A stretch of 13,072 nt of DNA, taken from IMG/VR virus record IMGVR_UViG_2698536505_000004. The stretch is one strand, 5' to 3'. Below the pieces are notes generated by a model, which did no database searches, was not told where the DNA came from, and worked only from the letters and a program-made list of their open reading frames with translations. Shown here piece after piece: positions 1 to 13,072 of this stretch (position 1 is its first letter; the number at the start of each line of letters is the position of its first letter). The stretch is from a virus. Its lineage: Duplodnaviria; Heunggongvirae; Uroviricota; Caudoviricetes. The position numbers and the translations under genes are program-made.

Positions 1-124
1 AAAGTGAAGACGTAAAGCTTCAGTGATCCAGGTCCGGTGTTTCATACGATAGTGTCCATTAAAAATGATGGACATTATTTTTGTAGAGCCGGAGGAAACA
101 GACCAGACGGTTTAAATGAGCCGG

Positions 125-256
125 TTACTTAACTTTTGCCAGACGCGACCAGTCAACGTCTGAAAGCGGATTCGCATAAGGGTCACCGCTCCCCTTATAA
201 ACCCACAGGGTGGTCCCGGCACCTTTCACCGGCATTGTAGGATTTGGTACAGGCAT
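125..256 (-). pseudogene. V: Truncated major tail protein gpV (N-terminal 43 codons, then TAA)
   Basis: Minus-strand ATG at 254-256 translates to [43 protein letters not shown] then stop at 125-127. This matches the N-terminus of lambda gpV (about 246 aa full length) as I recall it. Correct 7-nt spacing after U stop. Sequence below about 128 no longer follows lambda. Confidence 0.7.
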
Positions 257-263
257 AGCGTCC

Positions 264-659
264 TCACATTTCATAGGTAATGACATAAGTCAGATCGGCT
301 GAACTCCACAGGCCCGCATCATCGTCGCGCCGGTAGTCATAGCCGCTGGCCACCATACTGGTGATCAAATCTGACAGTGCCGGGATATCGCTCATCACCG
401 GATAAATCCGGGACTCCATCCACGCATCCAGCTCTGAATCCGGCACCTGAGCAGGCAGGAAAACTTCGATATGCAGCTCCGCCTGCCAGGTATCGCTGTC
501 CAGCTCTTCGCCCGTGTATTCAGCGCCGGTGAGATAAACGGCAACTGCCGGAAAATCCGCCTCATCAAAAACAGCGGGGCGACCATCAAAAAGCGTCGCC
601 CCGGTGTCATGCTTCTCCAGTGCATCCAGTACGGCTGCACGGAGTTCAGTATGTTTCAT
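264..659 (-). CDS. U: Tail terminator protein gpU
   Basis: 131-aa [51 protein letters not shown]... is essentially identical to lambda gpU as recalled. 4-nt overlap with Z as in lambda. Confidence 0.93.
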
Positions 660-1234
660 CGCTTTATTACCATTCTCAGTTGATGCTGCAGCGCATAGCC
701 CAGCTCTTTCGGAAGACGTTCACGCCGTATCCGTTCAATATTCTGTTTAAACGCCGTGGTAAGCGGCACCGCCATCGGGATTTTCACCACATCAATGGGG
801 TAACGGTTTTTCCCGGCCACACGCTGCATGACATGCCACCGGCCATTTTTCAGTTGCTGAATAAACGCGCCGGGAATACGACGGTTTCCCACCACAAGCA
901 CGCTGCCGCCACCTTTCAGGGATGAACGCTGCCCCTTTTTACGACGTCTGCGGCGGGAAAGGACAACCCGCGCGTTACCCAGCTTGATTACGGGCAAATC
1001 CCCCCGATTAACCCTGATTCTGGCCTGCGGATTTTTGACCGTGGCCCTTTTCAGCCTGGCCCTTTCCTTTACCAGTTTCCGGCGTACCTTTGTCTCACGG
1101 GCAACCTGTGCCACCGACTGCGATATCGCGGATGAAGCAACGCGGTTAATGGCCATTGCGGCGGCACCGGGCACCGCCGTTCTGCTGATACGGCTGAGGT
1201 TTTCAACGGCCTGCTCAAGACCTTTTATGGCCAT
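656..1234 (-). CDS. Z: Tail completion protein gpZ
   Basis: 192-aa ORF MAIKGLEQAVENLSRIS... matches lambda gpZ in sequence and length. Position between FII and U. Confidence 0.93.
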   Translation of the reverse strand: MAIKGLEQAVENLSRISRTAVPGAAAMAINRVASSAISQSVAQVARETKVRRKLVKERARLKRATVKNPQARIRVNRGDLPVIKLGNARVVLSRRRRRKKGQRSSLKGGGSVLVVGNRRIPGAFIQQLKNGRWHVMQRVAGKNRYPIDVVKIPMAVPLTTAFKQNIERIRRERLPKELGYALQHQLRMVIKR

Positions 1235-1245
1235 ACATCCCCCTT

Positions 1246-1599
1246 TCAGCGGCGACGGTTAACGGCAGGCGGTACGCCCCGCCCAAGCCAGAGATGACAG
1301 CTTCCGCCATCATCCGGCGAAATCCGGTCTATCCAGAAGTTTTCCTCACCGATGGTCAGCGTGTCGCCGCGCCGCAGCTGCCGCACATCATCAGTCCGGA
1401 CAAACAGGGACGGGCTGGAGCCTTCAACGCGCACGCCCTGTCCGGCATAGCTGATATTTTCAGGGTCATCAAAAACACCACGTATCACAGCACCGGACTG
1501 CTCACCGGATGTCATGGTGGCTGACGTTCCCATGTACCCGCGTATCGTTTCATCGGCGCAGGCAATGGCAGCATCGAACAGGTTATCGAAATCAGCCAC
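1246..1599 (-). CDS. FII: Head-tail connector protein gpFII
   Basis: 117-aa ORF MADFDNLFDAAIACADETIRGYMGTSATMTSGEQSGAVIRGVFDDPENISYAGQGVRVEG... matches lambda gpFII in sequence and length. Confidence 0.93.
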   Translation of the reverse strand: MADFDNLFDAAIACADETIRGYMGTSATMTSGEQSGAVIRGVFDDPENISYAGQGVRVEGSSPSLFVRTDDVRQLRRGDTLTIGEENFWIDRISPDDGGSCHLWLGRGVPPAVNRRR

Positions 1600-1610
1600 A
1601 GCGCCTCCCG

Positions 1611-2006
1611 TTATTGCATTCTGGCCAGGCCGCGCTCTGTCATTTCAGCTGCCACACCGGCAGAGACACGGAACGCCGTTCCCGGCAGCACAAATGCCAC
1701 AGCCTCATCCCGCGTGGCGTGAAGTGCATCAGTATGCAGCGTCACCAGTGCCACAACCGTGACCAGATCAGCCGTATCAGTCACGGTATCCGGCTGCGCT
1801 GATACAACCTCATTTTCATGTCCGGTCAGCACATTTTCCGGGCTGAGAGGGGTATCCTGATCGGCAGTGTCGCCCGTGTCATCAAGCTCTTCTTCCAGCT
1901 CTGCCACACGGAGCGCCAGTTCTTCTTTCGTCCCCGTCAGGCTGATATCACGGTTCAGTTGTTCACCCAGCGAGCGGAGACGGGCAATCAGTTCATCTTT
2001 CGTCAT
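1611..2006 (-). CDS. FI: DNA packaging / head assembly protein gpFI
   Basis: Start chosen at internal MTKDELIARLRSLGEQLNRD... (131 aa), which is the lambda gpFI N-terminus. The longer track ORF (to 2045) is an upstream extension. The 41-nt E-FI spacer matches lambda. Confidence 0.9.
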   Translation of the reverse strand: MTKDELIARLRSLGEQLNRDISLTGTKEELALRVAELEEELDDTGDTADQDTPLSPENVLTGHENEVVSAQPDTVTDTADLVTVVALVTLHTDALHATRDEAVAFVLPGTAFRVSAGVAAEMTERGLARMQ

Positions 2007-2047
2007 GGACTCCTCCACAGAGAAACAATGGCCCCGAAGGGCCATGA

Positions 2048-3073
2048 TTACGCCAGTTGAACGGACACGAACTCATCAGGATCAGCCAGCAGCATCAGCG
2101 GTGCTGACTGAATCATGGTGAACTCTCGCGCCGGATCGCCGGATGTCTTCCAGTTTTTCGGATAACGGGGAGACGCATTAATACCCTCACTCAATGCATC
2201 CGCATCCTGAATACAGCCATAGGTGCGCAGACCGCGTGCATGAGTGTTACCCAGCACCATCGTGTTGTCCGGCAGGAAGTTCTTTTTGACGCCGTTTTCC
2301 ACGTACTGTCCGGAATACACGACGATGGCCACATCGCCATACATCCCCTTATAGGACACCGCTTTACCCAGGTCTTTCACCGCTGTCTCCAGCTCGGAAT
2401 GAGAGCCGCGACGGGTATCCAGCTTCTCCTTGACGGCTTTGAAGGAACGGAACAGCGCCCAGCCTTTCGGATCAAACACGATGATATTCACCACTCCGCT
2501 GGCGTTCAGCGCGTAGGCTTCGATATCGTCGGTCGGGTCATACGTGGACTTGTCACGCTTGCTCCACTCCGTGCCGCCGGACTGCGTGATGTTGTTCGCC
2601 GCACTGCGGCCCATATCCACCTCAACCGGATCGAAGGCTTCACCGGTCATGGTGTATTTGCCCTTGAGCACGGCAGAAACTGCCTGCATCTCTTCGACCT
2701 GAGCAATGGCCAGCTCTTCGTCACGCATGTTCTGCAGGATGATGCGACGGCGGCGGTAAGCCGGGTCCGCCAGATTCTGCGGATCTTCATCCGGCAGGCG
2801 ACGCAGGGTCATCTGCGGATTCACTTCATGCTTGGGTTTGACATATCCCGGCGTAAATTCAGAGGTGGAGCCGCCACGGGAACGGATAACCTCACCGGAA
2901 ACAATCGGCGAAACGTACAGCGCCATGTTTACCAGTCCCGGAATTTGTGAGAGATAGACTTTCTCCGTAGTGAAGGGATAGCTCTCACGGAAAAAGAGAC
3001 GCAGAAACAGCGGATCAAACTTAAATTTCTGCTCATTTGCCGCCAGCAGCTGGGCGGTTGTGTACATCGACAT
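2048..3073 (-). CDS. E: Major capsid protein gpE (HK97-fold)
   Basis: 341-aa protein starting MSMYTTAQLLAANEQKFKFDPLFLRLFFRESYPFTTEKVYLSQIPGLVNMALYVSPIVSGEV..., recognised as lambda gpE. ATG at 3071-3073. The track ORF extends to a GTG at 3100. The 55-nt D-E spacer matches lambda. Confidence 0.95.
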   Translation of the reverse strand: MSMYTTAQLLAANEQKFKFDPLFLRLFFRESYPFTTEKVYLSQIPGLVNMALYVSPIVSGEVIRSRGGSTSEFTPGYVKPKHEVNPQMTLRRLPDEDPQNLADPAYRRRRIILQNMRDEELAIAQVEEMQAVSAVLKGKYTMTGEAFDPVEVDMGRSAANNITQSGGTEWSKRDKSTYDPTDDIEAYALNASGVVNIIVFDPKGWALFRSFKAVKEKLDTRRGSHSELETAVKDLGKAVSYKGMYGDVAIVVYSGQYVENGVKKNFLPDNTMVLGNTHARGLRTYGCIQDADALSEGINASPRYPKNWKTSGDPAREFTMIQSAPLMLLADPDEFVSVQLA

Positions 3074-3128
3074 AAAAAAATCCCGTAAAAAAAGCCGCAC
3101 AGGCGGCCTTTAGTGATGAAGGGTAAAG

Positions 3129-3461
3129 TTAAACGATGCTGATTGCCGTTCCGGCAAACGCGGTCCGTTTTTTCGTCTCGTCGCTGGCAGCCTCCGGCCA
3201 GAGCACATCCTCATAACGGAACGTGCCGGACTTGTAGAACGTCAGCGTGGTGCTGGTCTGGTCAGCATCAACCGCCAGAATGCCAACGGCAGCACCGTCG
3301 GTGGTGCCATCCCACGCAACCAGCTTACGGGTGGAGGTATCCAGCATCAGCGGGGTCATTGCAGGCGCTTTCGCACTCAATCCGCCGGGCGCGGTTGCCG
3401 TATGTGCCGGGTCACTGTTGCCCAGCGGCTGGTAATGGGTAAAGGTTTCTTTGCTCGTCAT
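3129..3461 (-). CDS. D: Head decoration protein gpD
   Basis: 110-aa protein [43 protein letters not shown]...[10 protein letters not shown] matches lambda gpD. An AAGGGA Shine-Dalgarno lies 8 nt upstream of the ATG at 3459-3461. 9-nt gap after C/Nu3 stop as in lambda. Confidence 0.95.
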
Positions 3462-3470
3462 AAACATCCC

Positions 3471-4076
3471 TTACACTGGTGTGTTCAGCAAATCGTTAAC
3501 GGCATCAGATGCCGGGTTACCTGCAGCCAGCGGTGCCGGTGCCCCCTGCATCAGACGATCCAGCGCAGTGTCACTGCGCGCCTGTGCACTCTGTGGTGCT
3601 GCGGCCAGAATACGGCGGGCCGTTTCCACGGTCATACCGGGGGTTTCGGCCAGCACGCATGCCTGTTCTTCGCGTCCGTGAGCCTCCTCACAGTTGAGGA
3701 TCCCCATAATGCGACTGTTTTCTGCCGCAACCGCTGCGGTGATCTGCGCGTTCACGTCCGGCTGCGCAGCGCTGGCGTTCTCGCCCTCCGTCGCTTGCAC
3801 CACGCCAGTAACGTCAGCCTGCGAAGCAGTGGCTGAAACAGTTGTTGATTGAGTCTCTTTGGTCATTCGCCCTCCTGAGAGACGGGATTTACGTGCATCC
3901 AGTGCATCACGCATGACGGTGATCGCATCGGTACTGTTCACAAGTTCATCAGCCAGTCCGGCATCAATGGCCTCCTGACCGCTGTACACTGCAGCCTCGG
4001 TATCCAGCACAGCCTGCACGGACAGGCCGGTATATGCCGACACCTTCTGTGCAAACATCCGGCGGGTTGCATCCAT
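3471..4076 (-). CDS. Nu3: Scaffolding protein Nu3 (in-frame internal start within C)
   Basis: In-frame ATG at 4074-4076 gives a 201-aa product MDATRRMFAQKVSAYTGLSVQAVLDTEAAVYSGQEAIDAGLADELV...NDLLNTPV sharing the C stop. Length and position equal lambda Nu3. Confidence 0.8.
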   Translation of the reverse strand: MDATRRMFAQKVSAYTGLSVQAVLDTEAAVYSGQEAIDAGLADELVNSTDAITVMRDALDARKSRLSGGRMTKETQSTTVSATASQADVTGVVQATEGENASAAQPDVNAQITAAVAAENSRIMGILNCEEAHGREEQACVLAETPGMTVETARRILAAAPQSAQARSDTALDRLMQGAPAPLAAGNPASDAVNDLLNTPV

Positions 4077-4770
4077 CCGGGACTGCAGTGTTTCCCGGAC
4101 ATCATCCGGTAGATGGCTGTAGGGGTTGCCATCCACCTTATGGCTGCCGCTGTAAATCAGCGTGATTTCCACGCCCTGTTTCTCCAGCGCAGCACCGTAA
4201 TTACTGTGAGCCATCATGACGCCGATGGAGCCTGTCCGGGCGGTCTGCGTGACCAGACGCCGGGAGGCGGCGCTGGCAAGCAGCTGACCTGCACTGCAGT
4301 TCATGTCGTTGGCCAGCGCCCATACCGGTTTTATGTCTCGCACACGGGCGATGATGTCAGCACAGTCAAATGCTCCCGCCACCATCCCGCCCGGTGTGTC
4401 CATATCCAGCAGAATGCCGTCCACCATCGGATCGCTGGCAGCCTGTTGCAGACGGGCGATAATGCCGTTGTAACCGGTCATCCCCGAATACGGCTGCAGC
4501 GCCCGCGTCCGGCTGACCAGCGTGCCGGACACCGGCAGCACGGCGATGCCGTTCATGACCTGATAACTGCGGGCCTGTCGTGGTCCGTCATCATCAACGG
4601 ATAACGCCAGCGCCGCGGGTGCCTCTCCGGCAGTCAGGCTGTCGCCGGACACCGCATCCGTCAGGCGGCTGATCCCAAGCTGGCCTGCAAGCGCACAAAA
4701 GAAAACCCGCGCATAGGCGGGTTCAAGCATCAGCGGCTCATTAAAGGCCATACTGGCAATATGCGGGAGA

Positions 4771-4790
<20 letters not shown>
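3471..4790 (-). CDS. C: Capsid assembly/maturation protease gpC (S49 peptidase family)
   Basis: 439-aa protein from GTG at 4788-4790 (VTAELRNLPHIASMAFNEPLMLEPAYARVFF...), with GAGGAG Shine-Dalgarno just upstream. 20-nt overlap with B stop, exactly as in lambda. The track ORF is extended upstream to 4925 through the B overlap. Confidence 0.9.
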
Positions 4791-8471
<3,681 letters not shown>

Positions 8472-8497
<26 letters not shown>

Positions 8498-9017
8498 TCA
8501 GCAACCCCGGTATCAGTTCATCCAGCGCGGCTGCTTTGTTCATGGCTTTGATGATATCCCGTTTCAGGAAATCAACATGTCGGTTTTCCAGTTCCGGAAA
8601 ACGCCGCTGCACCGACAGGGGGATCCCGTCGAGAATACTGGCAATTTCACCTGCGATCCGCGACAGCACGAAAGTACAGAATGCGGTTTCCACCACTTCA
8701 GCGGAGTCTCTGGCATTCTTCAGTTCCTGTGCGTCGGCCTGCGCACGCGTAAGTCGATGGCGTTCGTACTCAATAGTCCCTGGCTGGAGATCTGCCTCGC
8801 TGGCCTGCCGCAGTTCTTCAACCTCCCGGCGCAGCTTTTCGTTCTCAATTTCAGCATCCCTTTTGGCATACCATTTTATGACGGCGGCAGAGTCATAAAG
8901 CACCTCATTACCCTTGCCACCGCCTCGCAGAACGGGCATTCCCTGTTCCTGCCAGTTCTGAATGGTACGGATACTCGCACCGAAAATGTCAGCCAGCTGC
9001 TTTTTGTTGACTTCCAT
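8472..9017 (-). CDS. Nu1: Terminase small subunit gpNu1
   Basis: 181-aa ORF MEVNKKQLADIFGASIRTIQNWQEQGMPVLRGGGKGNEVLYDSAAVIKWYAKRDAEIENEKLRREVEEL... (winged-HTH N-terminus), recognised as lambda Nu1. Immediately downstream of cosB. Confidence 0.97.
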
Positions 9018-9019
9018 TG

Positions 9020-9160
9020 TTCATTCCACGGACAAAAACAGAGAAAGGAAACGACAGAGGCCAAAAAGCTCGCTTTCAGCACCTGTCGTTTCCTTTCTTT
9101 TCAGGGGGTATTTTAAATAAAAACATTAAGTTACGACGAAGAAGAACGGAAACACCTTAA
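9020..9160 (-). promoter_or_regulatory. cosB: Nu1 binding elements R1, R2, R3 and intervening AT-rich IHF (I1) region
   Basis: Reverse complement matches the lambda left-end sequence ...GTTTAAGG(C/T)GTTTCCGTTCTTCTTCG... (R3, about 9139-9154), AGAAAGGAAACGACAG (R2, about 9083-9098) and CTGTCGTTTCCTTTCTCTG (R1, about 9039-9056). The AT-rich block 9100-9130 sits between R3 and R2. Confidence 0.75.
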
Positions 9161-9194
9161 ACCGGAAAATTTTCATAAATAGCGAAAACCCGCG

Positions 9195-9206
9195 AGGTCG
9201 CCGCCC
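9195..9206 (-). other. cosN cohesive-end site (12-nt GGGCGGCGACCT on minus strand); cosQ expected in flanking 9207-9240
   Basis: Plus strand reads aggtcgccgccc at 9195-9206, the reverse complement of the lambda 12-nt cohesive end. It is flanked by CGCGGGTTTTCGCT (left-end side) and CGTAACCTGTCGGATC (right-end side). Confidence 0.88.
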
Positions 9207-9242
9207 CGTAACCTGTCGGATCGCCGGAAAGGACCCGCAAAA

Positions 9243-9257
9243 TGATAATAATTATCA
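9243..9257. promoter_or_regulatory. Perfect 7-1-7 inverted repeat TGATAAT-A-ATTATCA (Fur-box-like candidate operator)
   Basis: Read directly: tgataat a attatca at 9243-9257. It matches the 7-1-7 Fur box consensus TGATAATnATTATCA. Lies about 150 bp upstream of the plus-strand ylcI-like gene and next to cosQ. Confidence 0.35.
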
Positions 9258-9405
9258 TCTGCATGTCACAACGTGCATCTACGCCATCAAACCACGTCAA
9301 ATAATCAATTATGACGCAGGTATCATATTAATTGATCTGCATCAACTTAACGTAAAAACAACTTCAGACAATACAAATCAGCGACACTAAATACGGGACA
9401 ACCTC

Positions 9406-9639
9406 ATGTCAACGAAGAACAGAACCCGCAGAACAACAATCCGCAACATCCGCTTTCCTAACCAAATGATTGAACAAATTAACATCGCTCTTGATCAAAA
9501 AGGGTCCGGGAATTTCTCAGCCTGGGTCATTGAAGCCTGCCGCCGGAGACTGTGCTCAGAAAAAAGAGTTTCTCCTGAAGCAAACAAAGAAAAGAGTGAC
9601 ATTACTGAATTGCTCAGAAAACAGATCAGACCAGATTGA
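9406..9639 (+). CDS. ylcI: YlcI/YnfO-family (DUF3950) small protein, putative ribbon-helix-helix DNA-binding protein
   Basis: 77-aa ORF MSTKNRTRRTTIRNIRFPNQMIEQINIALDQKGSGNFSAWVIEACRRRL... resembles E. coli cryptic-prophage YlcI as recalled. The pattern basic strand (RNIRF), helix (MIEQINIAL), G-x-S/N turn, helix (AWVIEACRRRL) is typical of RHH/CopG-like folds (inference). Confidence 0.7.
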   Translation: MSTKNRTRRTTIRNIRFPNQMIEQINIALDQKGSGNFSAWVIEACRRRLCSEKRVSPEANKEKSDITELLRKQIRPD

Positions 9640-9695
9640 AGCAATTTAGATAATCGTGCAGACTACGCCCCTCATATCACATGGAAGGTACTACA

Positions 9696-10106
9696 ATGGC
9701 TCAGGTTGCCATTTTTAAACAAATATTCGATAAAGTGCGAAATAATTTAAACTATCACTGGTTTTATTCTGAACTAAAACGTCACAATGTCTCACATTAC
9801 ATTTACTATTTAGCTACAGAGAATATTCATCTTGTTCTTGAAAACGATAATACGGTTTTAATAAAAGGACAGGGTAAGGTTGTAAATGTAAGATTTTCAA
9901 AAAATAAATGCCTTATAGAAGCCACCTTAAAAGGATTCAAATCAGGAGAGTTATCATTTTACGAATACAGGAAAAATCTTGCTACAGCAGGGGTTTTCAG
10001 ATGGATTACAAATATCCACGAAAACAAAAGGTATTACTATACCTTTGATAATTCATTACTCTTTACTGAGAACATTCAGAACACTACACAAATATTTCCG
10101 CACTAA
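9696..10106 (+). CDS. DUF1398 (YbcV/YdfO-like) prophage protein of unknown function
   Basis: 136 aa from ATG 9696 ([11 protein letters not shown]...[39 protein letters not shown]...), with GGAAGG Shine-Dalgarno 6 nt upstream. The track ORF starts 15 nt earlier at 9681 without an SD. The FYEYR...AGVFRW motif recalls the DUF1398 family. AT-rich codon usage. Family call is from memory. Confidence 0.6.
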
Positions 10107-10362
10107 ATCATAACGTCCGGTTTCTTCCGTGCCAGAACCGGACTCGCTGGCATGATGAAATATGTGTACCCGGTAACCCCGGTGTGCATCGTTTTTGATT
10201 ATTCCCGCACACTCGCGCAGAAGGAGTTCCCCGTCGGGCTACGGTCTCTGTTAATACGGGAATACGGCGACGATACAGCGCATGATGTGTCAGGCTTGAA
10301 TACCTTTATCCTTTAAAAGGGATATCAGTTAAGTTATCCCGTGTAGGGTATAAACCATTATC

Positions 10363-10390
10363 AAAGCCACTCTGTAGGAAGTGGCTTTTG
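10363..10390 (+). terminator. Rho-independent terminator for the plus-strand ylcI-like/DUF1398 transcript
   Basis: Perfect 9-bp stem aaagccact / agtggcttt (10363-10371 and 10380-10388) with 8-nt loop ctgtagga, followed by a T-run (ttttg). Confidence 0.55.
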
Positions 10391-10395
10391 TAATG

Positions 10396-10423
10396 GCAAT
10401 AAAAAGCCCCGCGAATGCGAGGC
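10396..10423 (-). terminator. Rho-independent terminator downstream of the lysis cassette (minus strand)
   Basis: On the minus strand: gcctcgc-attc-gcggggc hairpin (7 bp including one G-U pair, tetraloop) followed by TTTTTATT. Plus-strand coordinates 10406-10423 for the hairpin, A-run at 10398-10405. Confidence 0.55.
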
Positions 10424-10597
10424 TAAATCCTGGTATTTGTAATGACTGGTTCTTATCTCAACACAGCCCCTTACCGCGCGCAAAATGCTCAATATCAAGC
10501 ATCAGCAATGAGATGTTTAATCTGGATTCACTCCAGAAGTGAGCACCACCCTGTCTACAGAGCCAGATGTGAAGGATGATGAGTAAAATTATCGCTA

Positions 10598-11065
10598 TCA
10601 TCGAAGGCATTGCGTCCTGATGTATTCCTGAAGCGTTCTCAGTGCTGTTTGGTCGCGGATAATTCCGTCCCGGATACCGAGAACGTTTCGTCCAGCAACT
10701 GGAGAGAGTTCGACGGTGGCATCATTGCCCATGCCGGAGGCGCTGGAGGTTTCGGCTGAGGATGGCACAGGGCATTTTCCTTTGACGAGCACCCGACCAC
10801 CATTATCAAGCTTGCGCCGAAGAGCATCATTTTCAGCTTTCGCATCAGCTAACTCCTTCGTGTATTTATCATCGAGTGCATCAGCATCACGCTGGCGCTG
10901 CTGCATGTCAGTAATGGTGGCGTTCGCCTTCTCCAGTTCACTGGCCTTGTTATCGCGCTGTTCTTTGTAGGCGATTGCATTATCACGGTAATGATTAACA
11001 GCCCATGACAGGCAGACGATGATGCAGATAACCAGAGCGGAGATAATCGCGGTTACCCTGCTCAT
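10598..11065 (-). CDS. Rz: Rz inner-membrane spanin (i-spanin)
   Basis: 155 aa from ATG 11063-11065 ([31 protein letters not shown]...), a lambda Rz-like N-terminal transmembrane segment then a coiled-coil-like region. ATGA overlap with R stop. The C-terminal third differs from lambda Rz. Confidence 0.85.
10639..10845 (-). CDS. Rz1: Rz1 outer-membrane lipoprotein spanin (o-spanin), embedded in Rz in the +1 frame
   Basis: 68-aa [48 protein letters not shown]... has a signal peptide with lipobox VVGC and a proline-rich mature part. AAGGAG Shine-Dalgarno 8 nt upstream. Wholly inside Rz, as for lambda Rz1. Confidence 0.78.
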
Positions 11066-11559
11066 TGTTGCCCCCACAAACAGACCTCACGCTCAATCTC
11101 ACGACGAGTCATCAGGCCTTTCCATTGCTTACCGCCAGCGTATGCCCAGCGACGTAGCTGGTCACATGCGCCCTTGATATCGCCCTGGTTTATTTTGCGA
11201 AGAAGAGTAGATGTTCTGAAATTGCCTGCGCCCACGTTATAGACGAACGAGTAAAGAGCGCCGCGCGTTGTTTCCGGTATATCGACTTTGATGTACGGGT
11301 TAATTTGTCTGGCTACCGTGGCAAGGTCTTTATTCAGGAGGGCTTTGCATTCTGCTTCGGTATACGTTTTACCGGGAATGATGTCTTTTCCTGTATGCCC
11401 GTGACATACAGTCCATACGCCAACGATATCTTTGTATGGTATGTAGCTGACACCTTCCAGACCATCGTTACCACTTGGGCCAGTGATTAACACTGATGCT
11501 ATAGCAATTGCTCCGCCACCAATAGCAGCAGCAACGACTTTTCGTAATGATGGAGGCAT
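11062..11559 (-). CDS. R: SAR endolysin (phage-21 R-type lysozyme, GH24)
   Basis: 165-aa [60 protein letters not shown]... has a Gly/Ala-rich N-terminal signal-anchor-release domain and an E-x8-D-x5-T catalytic motif. Close to phage 21 R as recalled. AGAGGTG Shine-Dalgarno present. Confidence 0.9.
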
Positions 11560-11774
11560 TATTCACCTCTCGCAGCCTTGCGCTTATCTTCTTTAATCTT
11601 GAAATAAAGGTTTGTCAGGTACGTCAGCAGGCCAAATACCAAGCTACCCAGCACACCTATTGCTGCCCACTGTGAGGGCGTGACTTTATCGAGCAGCTGT
11701 AAAAACCAGTAGCCAGCACTGCCTGCGGAGGTGCCGTAGGCAATGCCCGTTGTTAACTTATCCATGGATTTCAT
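11559..11774 (-). CDS. S: Pinholin (S21-type class II holin) with dual-start MKSM motif
   Basis: 71-aa [74 protein letters not shown] has two transmembrane segments and resembles phage 21 S21 (S2171 and S2168 forms). GGAGGTGAGG Shine-Dalgarno upstream. Stop overlaps R start (TAATG). Confidence 0.9.
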
Positions 11775-11961
11775 AGCCTCACCTCCGCAAATAACGGATG
11801 GTGTACACGGTTCGGAACGAAGAGGAAAGGTATAGAAGTTACATTAGCGTAAGGCTTGAACATCTATTCAAAAAGAAAAACGCCGCGATTATTCTGGCGT
11901 AGCTGAAAGCATCATACAATTATCAAATACGAAAATTACAAAATCATTAAAACGCATCACG

Positions 11962-12693
11962 TTACATCATGTCTTTTTCTAAAAAAAATCTTGATGAATA
12001 TTGATGGGGAGGAACACCAAAATACCTTCTGAAAACACTTACAAAATATGACGTGTTTTCATAACCGCATATCTCAGCAACTTTTCCAACAGAATATAAA
12101 TTGTAGCTTAATAACCTTTCCGCCATCACCATTCGCTCTTCAAGAATTAACTTACTAAATGATAAGCCTTCGTGCTTTAATTTTCTTTTTAACAGACTTT
12201 CACTCAGATACAGTCTTGAAGATATATCACAAAGTCTCCATGCTGCAGATATATCCGTGTGAATAATAGCCTTAACTTTACTTCCTAAACTATTAAGACA
12301 TCCAAATAAAAAACTTTGCACTATTTTCTCTGAAGATAAGATAGCAAGACATGCAAGTGATATTTGATTTCTAACAAAATCCACAGTTCTGCCATCACAA
12401 TTCAAGCATGCAATCAAGTTCTTTAACAATGAAAAATCTTCACATTCCACCATCAAGTATGCCGGATAAAACCTTCTTACAGAAAAAGGTGAGAGTGTGT
12501 TGCTTTTAAAGAAATCATTAACTGTTTTTTCTTCAACATCTACGATCATTACATGATCTATATTTGATGAAAAAAAATCTTTTAAATTGTAATCAATGAG
12601 AACAGCACTTCCTTTTTTAAACAAAATATCTTCTTTACCAATTCGGACATCAAACGAGTTCAACACCAAAATGATAGAACATATGTATAGCAT
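11962..12693 (-). CDS. AraC/XylS-family transcriptional regulator (AppY/GadX/Rns-like), moron
   Basis: 243 aa from ATG 12691-12693 with AGGTGG Shine-Dalgarno 5 nt upstream; the track ORF begins at an upstream GTG at 12702. C-terminal dual-HTH signature ...AAWRLCDISSRLYLSESLLKRKLKHEGLSFSKLILEERMVMAERLL...VGKVAEICGYENTSYFVSVFRRYFGVPPHQY. Gene is visibly AT-rich compared with flanking phage genes. Confidence 0.8.
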   Translation of the reverse strand: MLYICSIILVLNSFDVRIGKEDILFKKGSAVLIDYNLKDFFSSNIDHVMIVDVEEKTVNDFFKSNTLSPFSVRRFYPAYLMVECEDFSLLKNLIACLNCDGRTVDFVRNQISLACLAILSSEKIVQSFLFGCLNSLGSKVKAIIHTDISAAWRLCDISSRLYLSESLLKRKLKHEGLSFSKLILEERMVMAERLLSYNLYSVGKVAEICGYENTSYFVSVFRRYFGVPPHQYSSRFFLEKDMM

Positions 12694-12996
12694 ATTATCC
12701 ACCTGATATCATTGGGGTTACACCAGGTAAGTATAGGTGGAAAATCAATATTCGCCAGTTCAACAATAAGGAAAATTTCATTGCATCACAAGTATAAAAT
12801 TATGTATTTAACTCACAAAGACAAATTATTAAACCAATCTGTTATATTATATATAGCTGCGTGGAATCATAATATTATATATTTTGACTGGCATGTTTAC
12901 TAACTTTAAGTTGCATCTCAATTGTTTCTTCAGCGTAAACAGAGTTTTTATACAAACTGACACTCTGGGTATCATAGTGTAGGTAATGACTCCAAC

Positions 12997-13072
12997 TTAT
13001 TGATAGTGTTTTATGTTCAGATAATGCCCGATGACTTTGTCATGCAGCTCCACCGATTTTGAGAACGACAGC
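12997..13072 (-). CDS. 3' end of an ORF running off the window (candidate late antiterminator Q by position)
   Basis: Minus-strand frame reads ...LSFSKSVELHDKVIGHYLNIKHYQ then stop at 12997-12999. Normal GC content, directly upstream of the AT-rich moron and lysis cassette where Q sits in lambdoid phages. Identity not verified. Confidence 0.3.
   Translation of the reverse strand, partial: LSFSKSVELHDKVIGHYLNIKHYQ

Follow-up and report, generated by a model that had tools for sequence, protein, structure and literature searches.

The N-terminal domain of the bacteriophage lambda protein gpV builds the tail tube, and gpV as a whole consists of this domain (PF16461) followed by a C-terminal Big_2 domain. 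Defective lambdoid prophages disrupted by insertion sequences (IS) include the DLP12-type of E. coli K-12 and the Sp prophages of O157 Sakai that have been hit by IS629. Elements of the IS66 family (ISCro1/IS679-type) are ~2.7 kb long with GTAA termini and imperfect terminal inverted repeats of ~22 bp, carry tnpA-tnpB-tnpC in that order and generate an 8-bp duplication, and all of these properties are shared with the IS described here. Han and co-workers are said to have found in 2001 that IS679 makes 8-bp duplications and needs all three genes. ISCro1 itself is already known from E. coli, one case being its position upstream of afaA in ST131 (PMC8764528). The full copy of the IS studied here is 2,699 bp by comparison with 2,824 bp for ISCro1 (PMC8764528); it is therefore treated as a member of the family and not necessarily as ISCro1 itself.

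The DNA that we analysed (hereafter the window) is the entire short-read draft contig CYAI01000056.1 of 13,072 nt, from a lambda-like E. coli prophage. A look-up with the truncated 43-aa V product (V') described below identified it in draft assembly GCA_001277655.1, where the matching locus (L085), once reverse-complemented, is the same as window 1-10256. Both ends of the window are assembly breaks at multi-copy IS, an IS66-type element on the left and IS1 on the right. At the right-hand end, the matches of all other genomes to the window end at 12982, and related prophages carry, ahead of their own IS1, ~1.5 kb more with genes for a YbgA-family protein and a lipocalin; the IS1 of the window is therefore at a different site or associated with a deletion. 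Because the whole contig terminates inside a multi-copy IS at its left-hand end, the tnpA open reading frame runs off the window and any DNA beyond this IS is invisible here. A search of window 1-400 for a sigma-70-like promoter or a terminator-like site found neither.

The prophage shares with the IS-disrupted lambdoid prophages named above lysis and packaging genes of the nohD/essD/rrrD type, as well as hits by IS, in this case an IS66-type element in V and IS1 near the lysis region. By comparison with DLP12 of K-12, however, all of its head genes are intact and its tail genes have apparently been kept. The description of the head and packaging genes as intact in an initial annotation of this DNA was borne out, with every gene from Nu1 to U complete (Nu1 181, A 641, W 68, B 533, C 439, D 110, E 341, FI 131, FII 117, Z 192 and U 131 aa). 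Strains 2EC1, 2018-11-3CC and others carry the closest uninterrupted prophages, with ~99.2% identity to window 129-12982, and the one that was displayed, in 2EC1, has an intact V of 246 aa and a full tail module up to J.

Alignment of lambda (J02459) nt 9082-1, nt 1 being the cos end, to window 129-9206 gave 97.96% identity with 4 gaps, and colinearity with lambda ended exactly at window 129, which corresponds to lambda nt 9082 and to V nt 128 (lambda V starts at nt 8955). The fragment of V lies directly after U as in lambda, within a stretch (window 129-700 versus lambda 9082-8511) of 99.3% identity, so that both identity and synteny assign it to V. A full-length V of ~246 aa, the length in intact relatives, is absent after U in the window; only 42 2/3 codons of lambda gpV precede the IS and the remainder is displaced by 2.7 kb. 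Translation of window 256..1 gave a minus-strand V' open reading frame of 43 codons at 256..128 with its stop codon at 127..125, and the 43-aa product matches PF16461 (Phage_TTP_12). Codon 43 reads AAG in the window and AAA in intact V. As both the G of this codon and the following TAA come from the IS terminus GTAA (AA/G TAA), V proper ends at nt 128, i.e. window 129 (Table 1). The initial annotation had read V as stopping after 43 codons, which translation of the minus strand confirmed, and had described the sequence below about position 128 as no continuation of lambda V; alignment to lambda, which it proposed for placing the breakpoint, does halt at window 129.

Table 1. Features of the window (plain numbers are window coordinates) and insertions of ISCro1-family IS in related prophages (V nt coordinates, where negative values lie upstream of the V start).
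Feature	Position	Strand or IS orientation	Remarks
tnpA-proximal terminal 128 nt of 2,699-bp ISCro1-family (IS66-family) IS	1..128	-	128/128 identical to WS0115A copy
tnpA, first 15 codons, MKHRTWITEALRLHF...	1..45 (ATG at 45..43)	-	cut by contig end
Terminal inverted repeat GTAACCGGCTCATTTAAACCGT	107..128	-	imperfect partner GTAAGCGACTCGTCAGAACCGT at other IS end
TAA stop of V' open reading frame	125..127	-	from IS terminus GTAA
8-bp target AAAGTTAA (V nt 121-128)	129..136	-	duplicated across IS
V 5' fragment (lambda major tail tube gene), nt 1-128, 42 2/3 codons	129..256	-	lambda alignment
U, tail terminator, intact, 131 aa	264..659	-	upstream neighbour of V
IS1 terminal ~90 nt	12982..13072	.	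91 nt 100% identical to both IS1 ends of strain 2EC1 (L004)
Insertion, RMDEC332	V nt -429..-422	late transcription	
Insertion, O103:H2 strain 129	V nt -261	late transcription	
Insertion, A1	V nt -48..-41	late transcription	
Insertion, EC1722-1	V nt -26..-19	late transcription	
Insertion, 1504D004	V nt about -6..+2	late transcription	
Insertion, c1-17	V nt 7-14	late transcription	
Insertion, GZ2408C	V nt 54-61	late transcription	
Insertion, IMG/VR L074	V nt 55-62	late transcription	
Insertion, NCTC86	V nt 75-82	late transcription	
Insertion, WS0115A	V nt 104-111	late transcription	
Insertions at five sites	V nt about -429, -133 (ETEC H10407), -69, -64, -14	opposite	estimated from alignment spans
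Insertion	V nt 7-14	opposite	confirmed at nucleotide level

The sequence on the other side of the junction is the end of an IS. Read as its reverse complement, window 1-128 matches nt 1-128 of the IS cut from E. coli WS0115A with 100% identity, and in both WS0115A and NCTC86 the same sequence forms the end of a complete IS located inside V. Comparison of the two ends of the full WS0115A copy showed that both begin with GTAA and carry terminal inverted repeats of ~22 bp. By megablast, positions 1-128 are annotated in matching complete E. coli genomes as 'IS66-like element accessory protein TnpA', and the complete IS encodes TnpA (225 aa), TnpB (115 aa) and an 'ISCro1 family transposase' (523 aa). 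Scored against the NCBIfam equivalog cut-offs for IS66 TnpA, TnpB and TnpC, the 225-aa TnpA of related full copies reached 296.7 bits (NF038385, IS66_access_TnpA; cut-off 150), TnpB of the full copies 128.9 bits (NF033819; cut-off 50) and TnpC 477.9 bits (NF033517; cut-off 180). The order tnpA-tnpB-tnpC is found in the full copies with the identical end, the window itself showing only codons 1-15 of tnpA, and a sister contig (L084) extends past the junction for 1,375 nt into the IS with 99.9% identity. ISCro1-type copies occur at up to 23-27 matching places per E. coli genome, and the numerous insertion sites of near-identical copies would imply recent activity of this type of element. The leader of the IS, just upstream of the tnpA start, contains an 11-nt inverted repeat (ATAGTGTCCAT at window 49-59 and ATGGACATTAT at 68-78), which may be a regulatory or transposase-binding hairpin.

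These data recast two proposals of the initial annotation. The breakpoint that it described is real and lies at window 128/129, but the deletion or recombination origin that it suggested does not hold, as the sequence across the breakpoint is a precise IS66 terminus matching over 128 of 128 nt. Similarly, the minus-strand open reading frame starting with the ATG at 43-45 (MKHRTWITEALRLHF) is present; it is the start of the IS66 tnpA gene.

The window junction reads ...AAAGTTAA and then GTAACCGG. The IS66 family makes 8-bp duplications, and the insertions in WS0115A and NCTC86 are flanked by duplications of CGACCAGT and CATAAGGG respectively (written on the + strand of each locus); the reciprocal junction was therefore predicted to read ...GAGTCGCTTAC, AAAGTTAA and AGACCTGACG in succession. 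A look-up of the exact 160-aa remainder of V (P0138), which begins at the in-frame start Met87, led to contig CYFX01000091.1 (L110; assembly GCA_001285605.1). The first 86 nt of this contig are the tnpC-end of the IS; AAAGTTAA and then AGACCTGACG follow, so that the junction is observed directly as ...GAGTCGCTTAC, AAAGTTAA, AGACCTG. Beyond the IS it carries V from nt 129 onward followed by G, T, H (853 aa), M and L, and the stretch is 99.65% identical to the intact 2EC1 prophage. The last base before the IS thus maps to V nt 128 (window) and the first base after it to V nt 121 (L110), an 8-bp duplication read from two junctions in sister assemblies (the window junction in GCA_001277655.1 and the reciprocal one in GCA_001285605.1) and not from one closed sequence. 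Duplication of AAAGTTAA together with the presence of tail genes behind the IS is the signature of one simple transposition.

Pattern scans for the predicted reciprocal junction gave no match in IMG/VR or in JGI metagenomes; these negatives are uninformative because the window junction itself is also absent from the JGI metagenomes. When IMG/VR was scanned for the tnpC-end, 79 contigs matched, none of them from the sister genome 2695420585, and the truncated V proteins P0016, P0007 and P0021 led only to contigs with runs of N or contig-end truncations, without IS junctions.

Simple transposition of an IS66-family IS into V of a lambda-like prophage, with the tail genes lying beyond the IS, is in our judgement a very probable explanation of the locus. 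A 2.7-kb element (ISCro1 family in NCBI naming, with tnpA-tnpB-tnpC) would have transposed into V after nt 128, facing the same way as late transcription, and would have duplicated the target AAAGTTAA; its GTAA terminus would supply the immediate TAA stop and so create the 43-codon V' open reading frame, and the remainder of V with G, T, H, M, L and following genes would come to lie on the far side. The assembler would then have halted inside the multi-copy IS, as it would have done in the IS1 on the right. A simple insertion in GCA_001277655.1 predicts that CTGACGAGTCGCTTACAAAGTTAAAGACCTGACG occurs among its other contigs or reads, and we infer that the source genome itself retains the reciprocal junction.

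The main competing explanation is that later recombination between IS copies in the source strain deleted or inverted the DNA past the insertion in V, which would make the prophage truly tail-less. CYAI01000056.1 does not reach past the IS, the source genome carries several copies of the IS and ISCro1-type copies are abundant in E. coli as noted above, and the IS1 end of the contig, at which relatives carry ~1.5 kb more, indicates that IS-associated change does occur in this prophage. Any tail genes adjoining the head module would lie beyond the source contig, but a sister assembly of the same accession series with the same insertion has the reciprocal junction, the 8-bp duplication and the remainder of V with G, T, H, M and L, and this gene order argues against deletion of the tail module. 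The accessions of the 43-aa V' and of the 160-aa remainder (P0138) likewise fall in the same ENA protein series, CTT/CTY/CTZ. Further, both junctions could be read for 11 other insertions of ISCro1-family IS in the Z-U-V region, and all 11 were simple with an 8-bp duplication; the downstream genes were displayed for ten of them (all but the IMG/VR locus L074), and in each of the ten the remainder of V or intact V, G, T and the start of H follow directly behind the IS. On this evidence recombination between IS copies is improbable.

Considerably less probable still is an assembly chimera, or a sequencing error that gave an otherwise complete V a spurious stop. Repeats lie at both ends of the contig, and an assembler may misjoin there; however, the identical junction was found in independent assemblies (GCA_000704425.1, Logan SRR1186741, ENA metagenome ERZ927384 and IMG/VR UViG_2695420585_000002), L084 reaches 1.37 kb into the IS, and the complementary junction exists in L110. 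In IMG/VR, the sister contig L003 has the identical junction and differs from window 61-13072 by 2 mismatches. The window junction recurs in four or more independent assemblies, draft or metagenomic, and is therefore a real, inherited allele and not a chimera. When window 1-700 was compared by megablast with 5,426 complete E. coli genomes, no complete RefSeq E. coli genome showed the exact V-IS junction, and an exact-pattern scan for the window junction found no match in genome contigs and none in JGI metagenomes. The look-up with the 43-aa V' gave ten places, of which six were rejected as examples of the junction because the contig simply stops at V nt 129-131 with intact AAAGTTAAAGA; these contig-end matches were selected by the look-up itself.

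A deletion end-point, or the mosaic junction of lambdoid phages to unrelated phage or host DNA by homologous or illegitimate recombination that the initial annotation had envisaged, has next to no probability, for although lambdoid phages are mosaic and one assembly whose head module differs (L086) shares the Z, U and V 5' sequence, the non-lambda side begins at the first base of the IS with the tnpA start and 128/128 identity, and the expected target duplication lies across the IS in L110.

The prophage is probably tail-defective through the disruption of V because V residues 1-86 are split from the remainder, because the sole downstream in-frame start, Met87, would yield a 160-aa fragment without the N-terminal part of the tube-forming domain, and because the 2.7-kb insert may lower transcription of the tail genes behind the IS. 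As judged from the gene structure, parting residues 1-43 of gpV from the rest, with the 160-aa fragment as the most that can be made, should abolish tail assembly, and we infer that the prophage, if otherwise inducible, would produce filled tail-less heads as a result of the split V and not of a missing tail module. The tail-less prophage of the initial annotation is thus retained in part: V is inactivated and the phage probably makes no tails, but the tail genes were probably not deleted, since L110 keeps G, T, H, M and L. That annotation had itself named, as a result that would speak against it, an intact tail module right next to the junction, and such a module was found behind the IS in this sister assembly.

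The explanation as a whole is an ordinary, known process, and the only mildly new element is an apparent hot region for insertion. Among 5,426 complete E. coli genomes and IMG/VR, we found at least 15 other combinations of site and orientation of ISCro1-family IS between the 3' end of Z and V nt 128 (loci L001, L002, L074, L098-L101 and L113-L117; Table 1), two sites, V nt 7-14 and about -429, being used in both orientations. The ~850 nt that follow V nt 128 contained the same IS in neither orientation, by queries able to detect insertions there. Of 81 IS ends sampled without bias from IMG/VR, eight map to the 33-kb 2EC1 prophage reference and seven of these lie in the late region, with one in V and one in U. 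The ~560-bp stretch from the Z 3' end through U to V nt 128 may be a regional hot spot for ISCro1-type IS66 elements, with the window insertion as the most downstream, a proposal to which we give about even credence on a raw tally of sites that ignores phylogeny and selection.

A bias in IS orientation with respect to late transcription was considered and rejected, given about six sites in the opposite orientation. A strong target motif was likewise rejected; only a weak preference, GC-N-[NNWNNWNN]-N-GC, was seen among 107 unique flanks (79 + 28). V contains a 7-bp perfect inverted repeat, ATAAGGG/CCCTTAT, at window 176-182 and 192-198 (V nt 59-65 and 75-81), the arms of which are overlapped by three of the independent IS sites (V nt 54-61, 55-62 and 75-82).

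Further observations concern related loci. In c1-17, LSN03-016011/A and DP033 (L099, L100 and L101), the hit at V nt 7-14 leaves an open reading frame from Met8 that is annotated as an intact tail protein of 239 aa, i.e. V without its first seven residues and its native ribosome-binding site. Strain 2EC1, the closest complete relative, carries another copy of the same IS (L004, 10946-13700) in the E-D intergenic region, by a terminator-like hairpin and with duplication of AAAAAAGC; the late region of the 2EC1-type prophage has been struck repeatedly by this IS. A Logan contig (L087, SRR22309374_2; 9200-10131) runs from J through G and V to approximately V nt 184 and then continues with an inverted partial Z, U and V nt 1-131, a join which is either an artefact of the Logan assembly or a real inversion between prophages.

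For the reading of draft genomes, the locus provides a caution that a gene ending beside unrelated sequence at the edge of a contig usually reflects a repeat-induced break at an IS and not a deletion or mosaic junction. For lambdoid prophages it adds one more route of disablement, in which the tail tube gene is hit by a single IS while the head, packaging and lysis functions are spared. The hot spot, if true, would point to a rule of target selection by the transposases of the IS66 family, enzymes with a little-understood mechanism, beyond the weak GC-N-[NNWNNWNN]-N-GC preference, and the repeated targeting of U and the 5' part of V by one IS66-type element offers a small, testable lead on how IS66 elements choose their targets.
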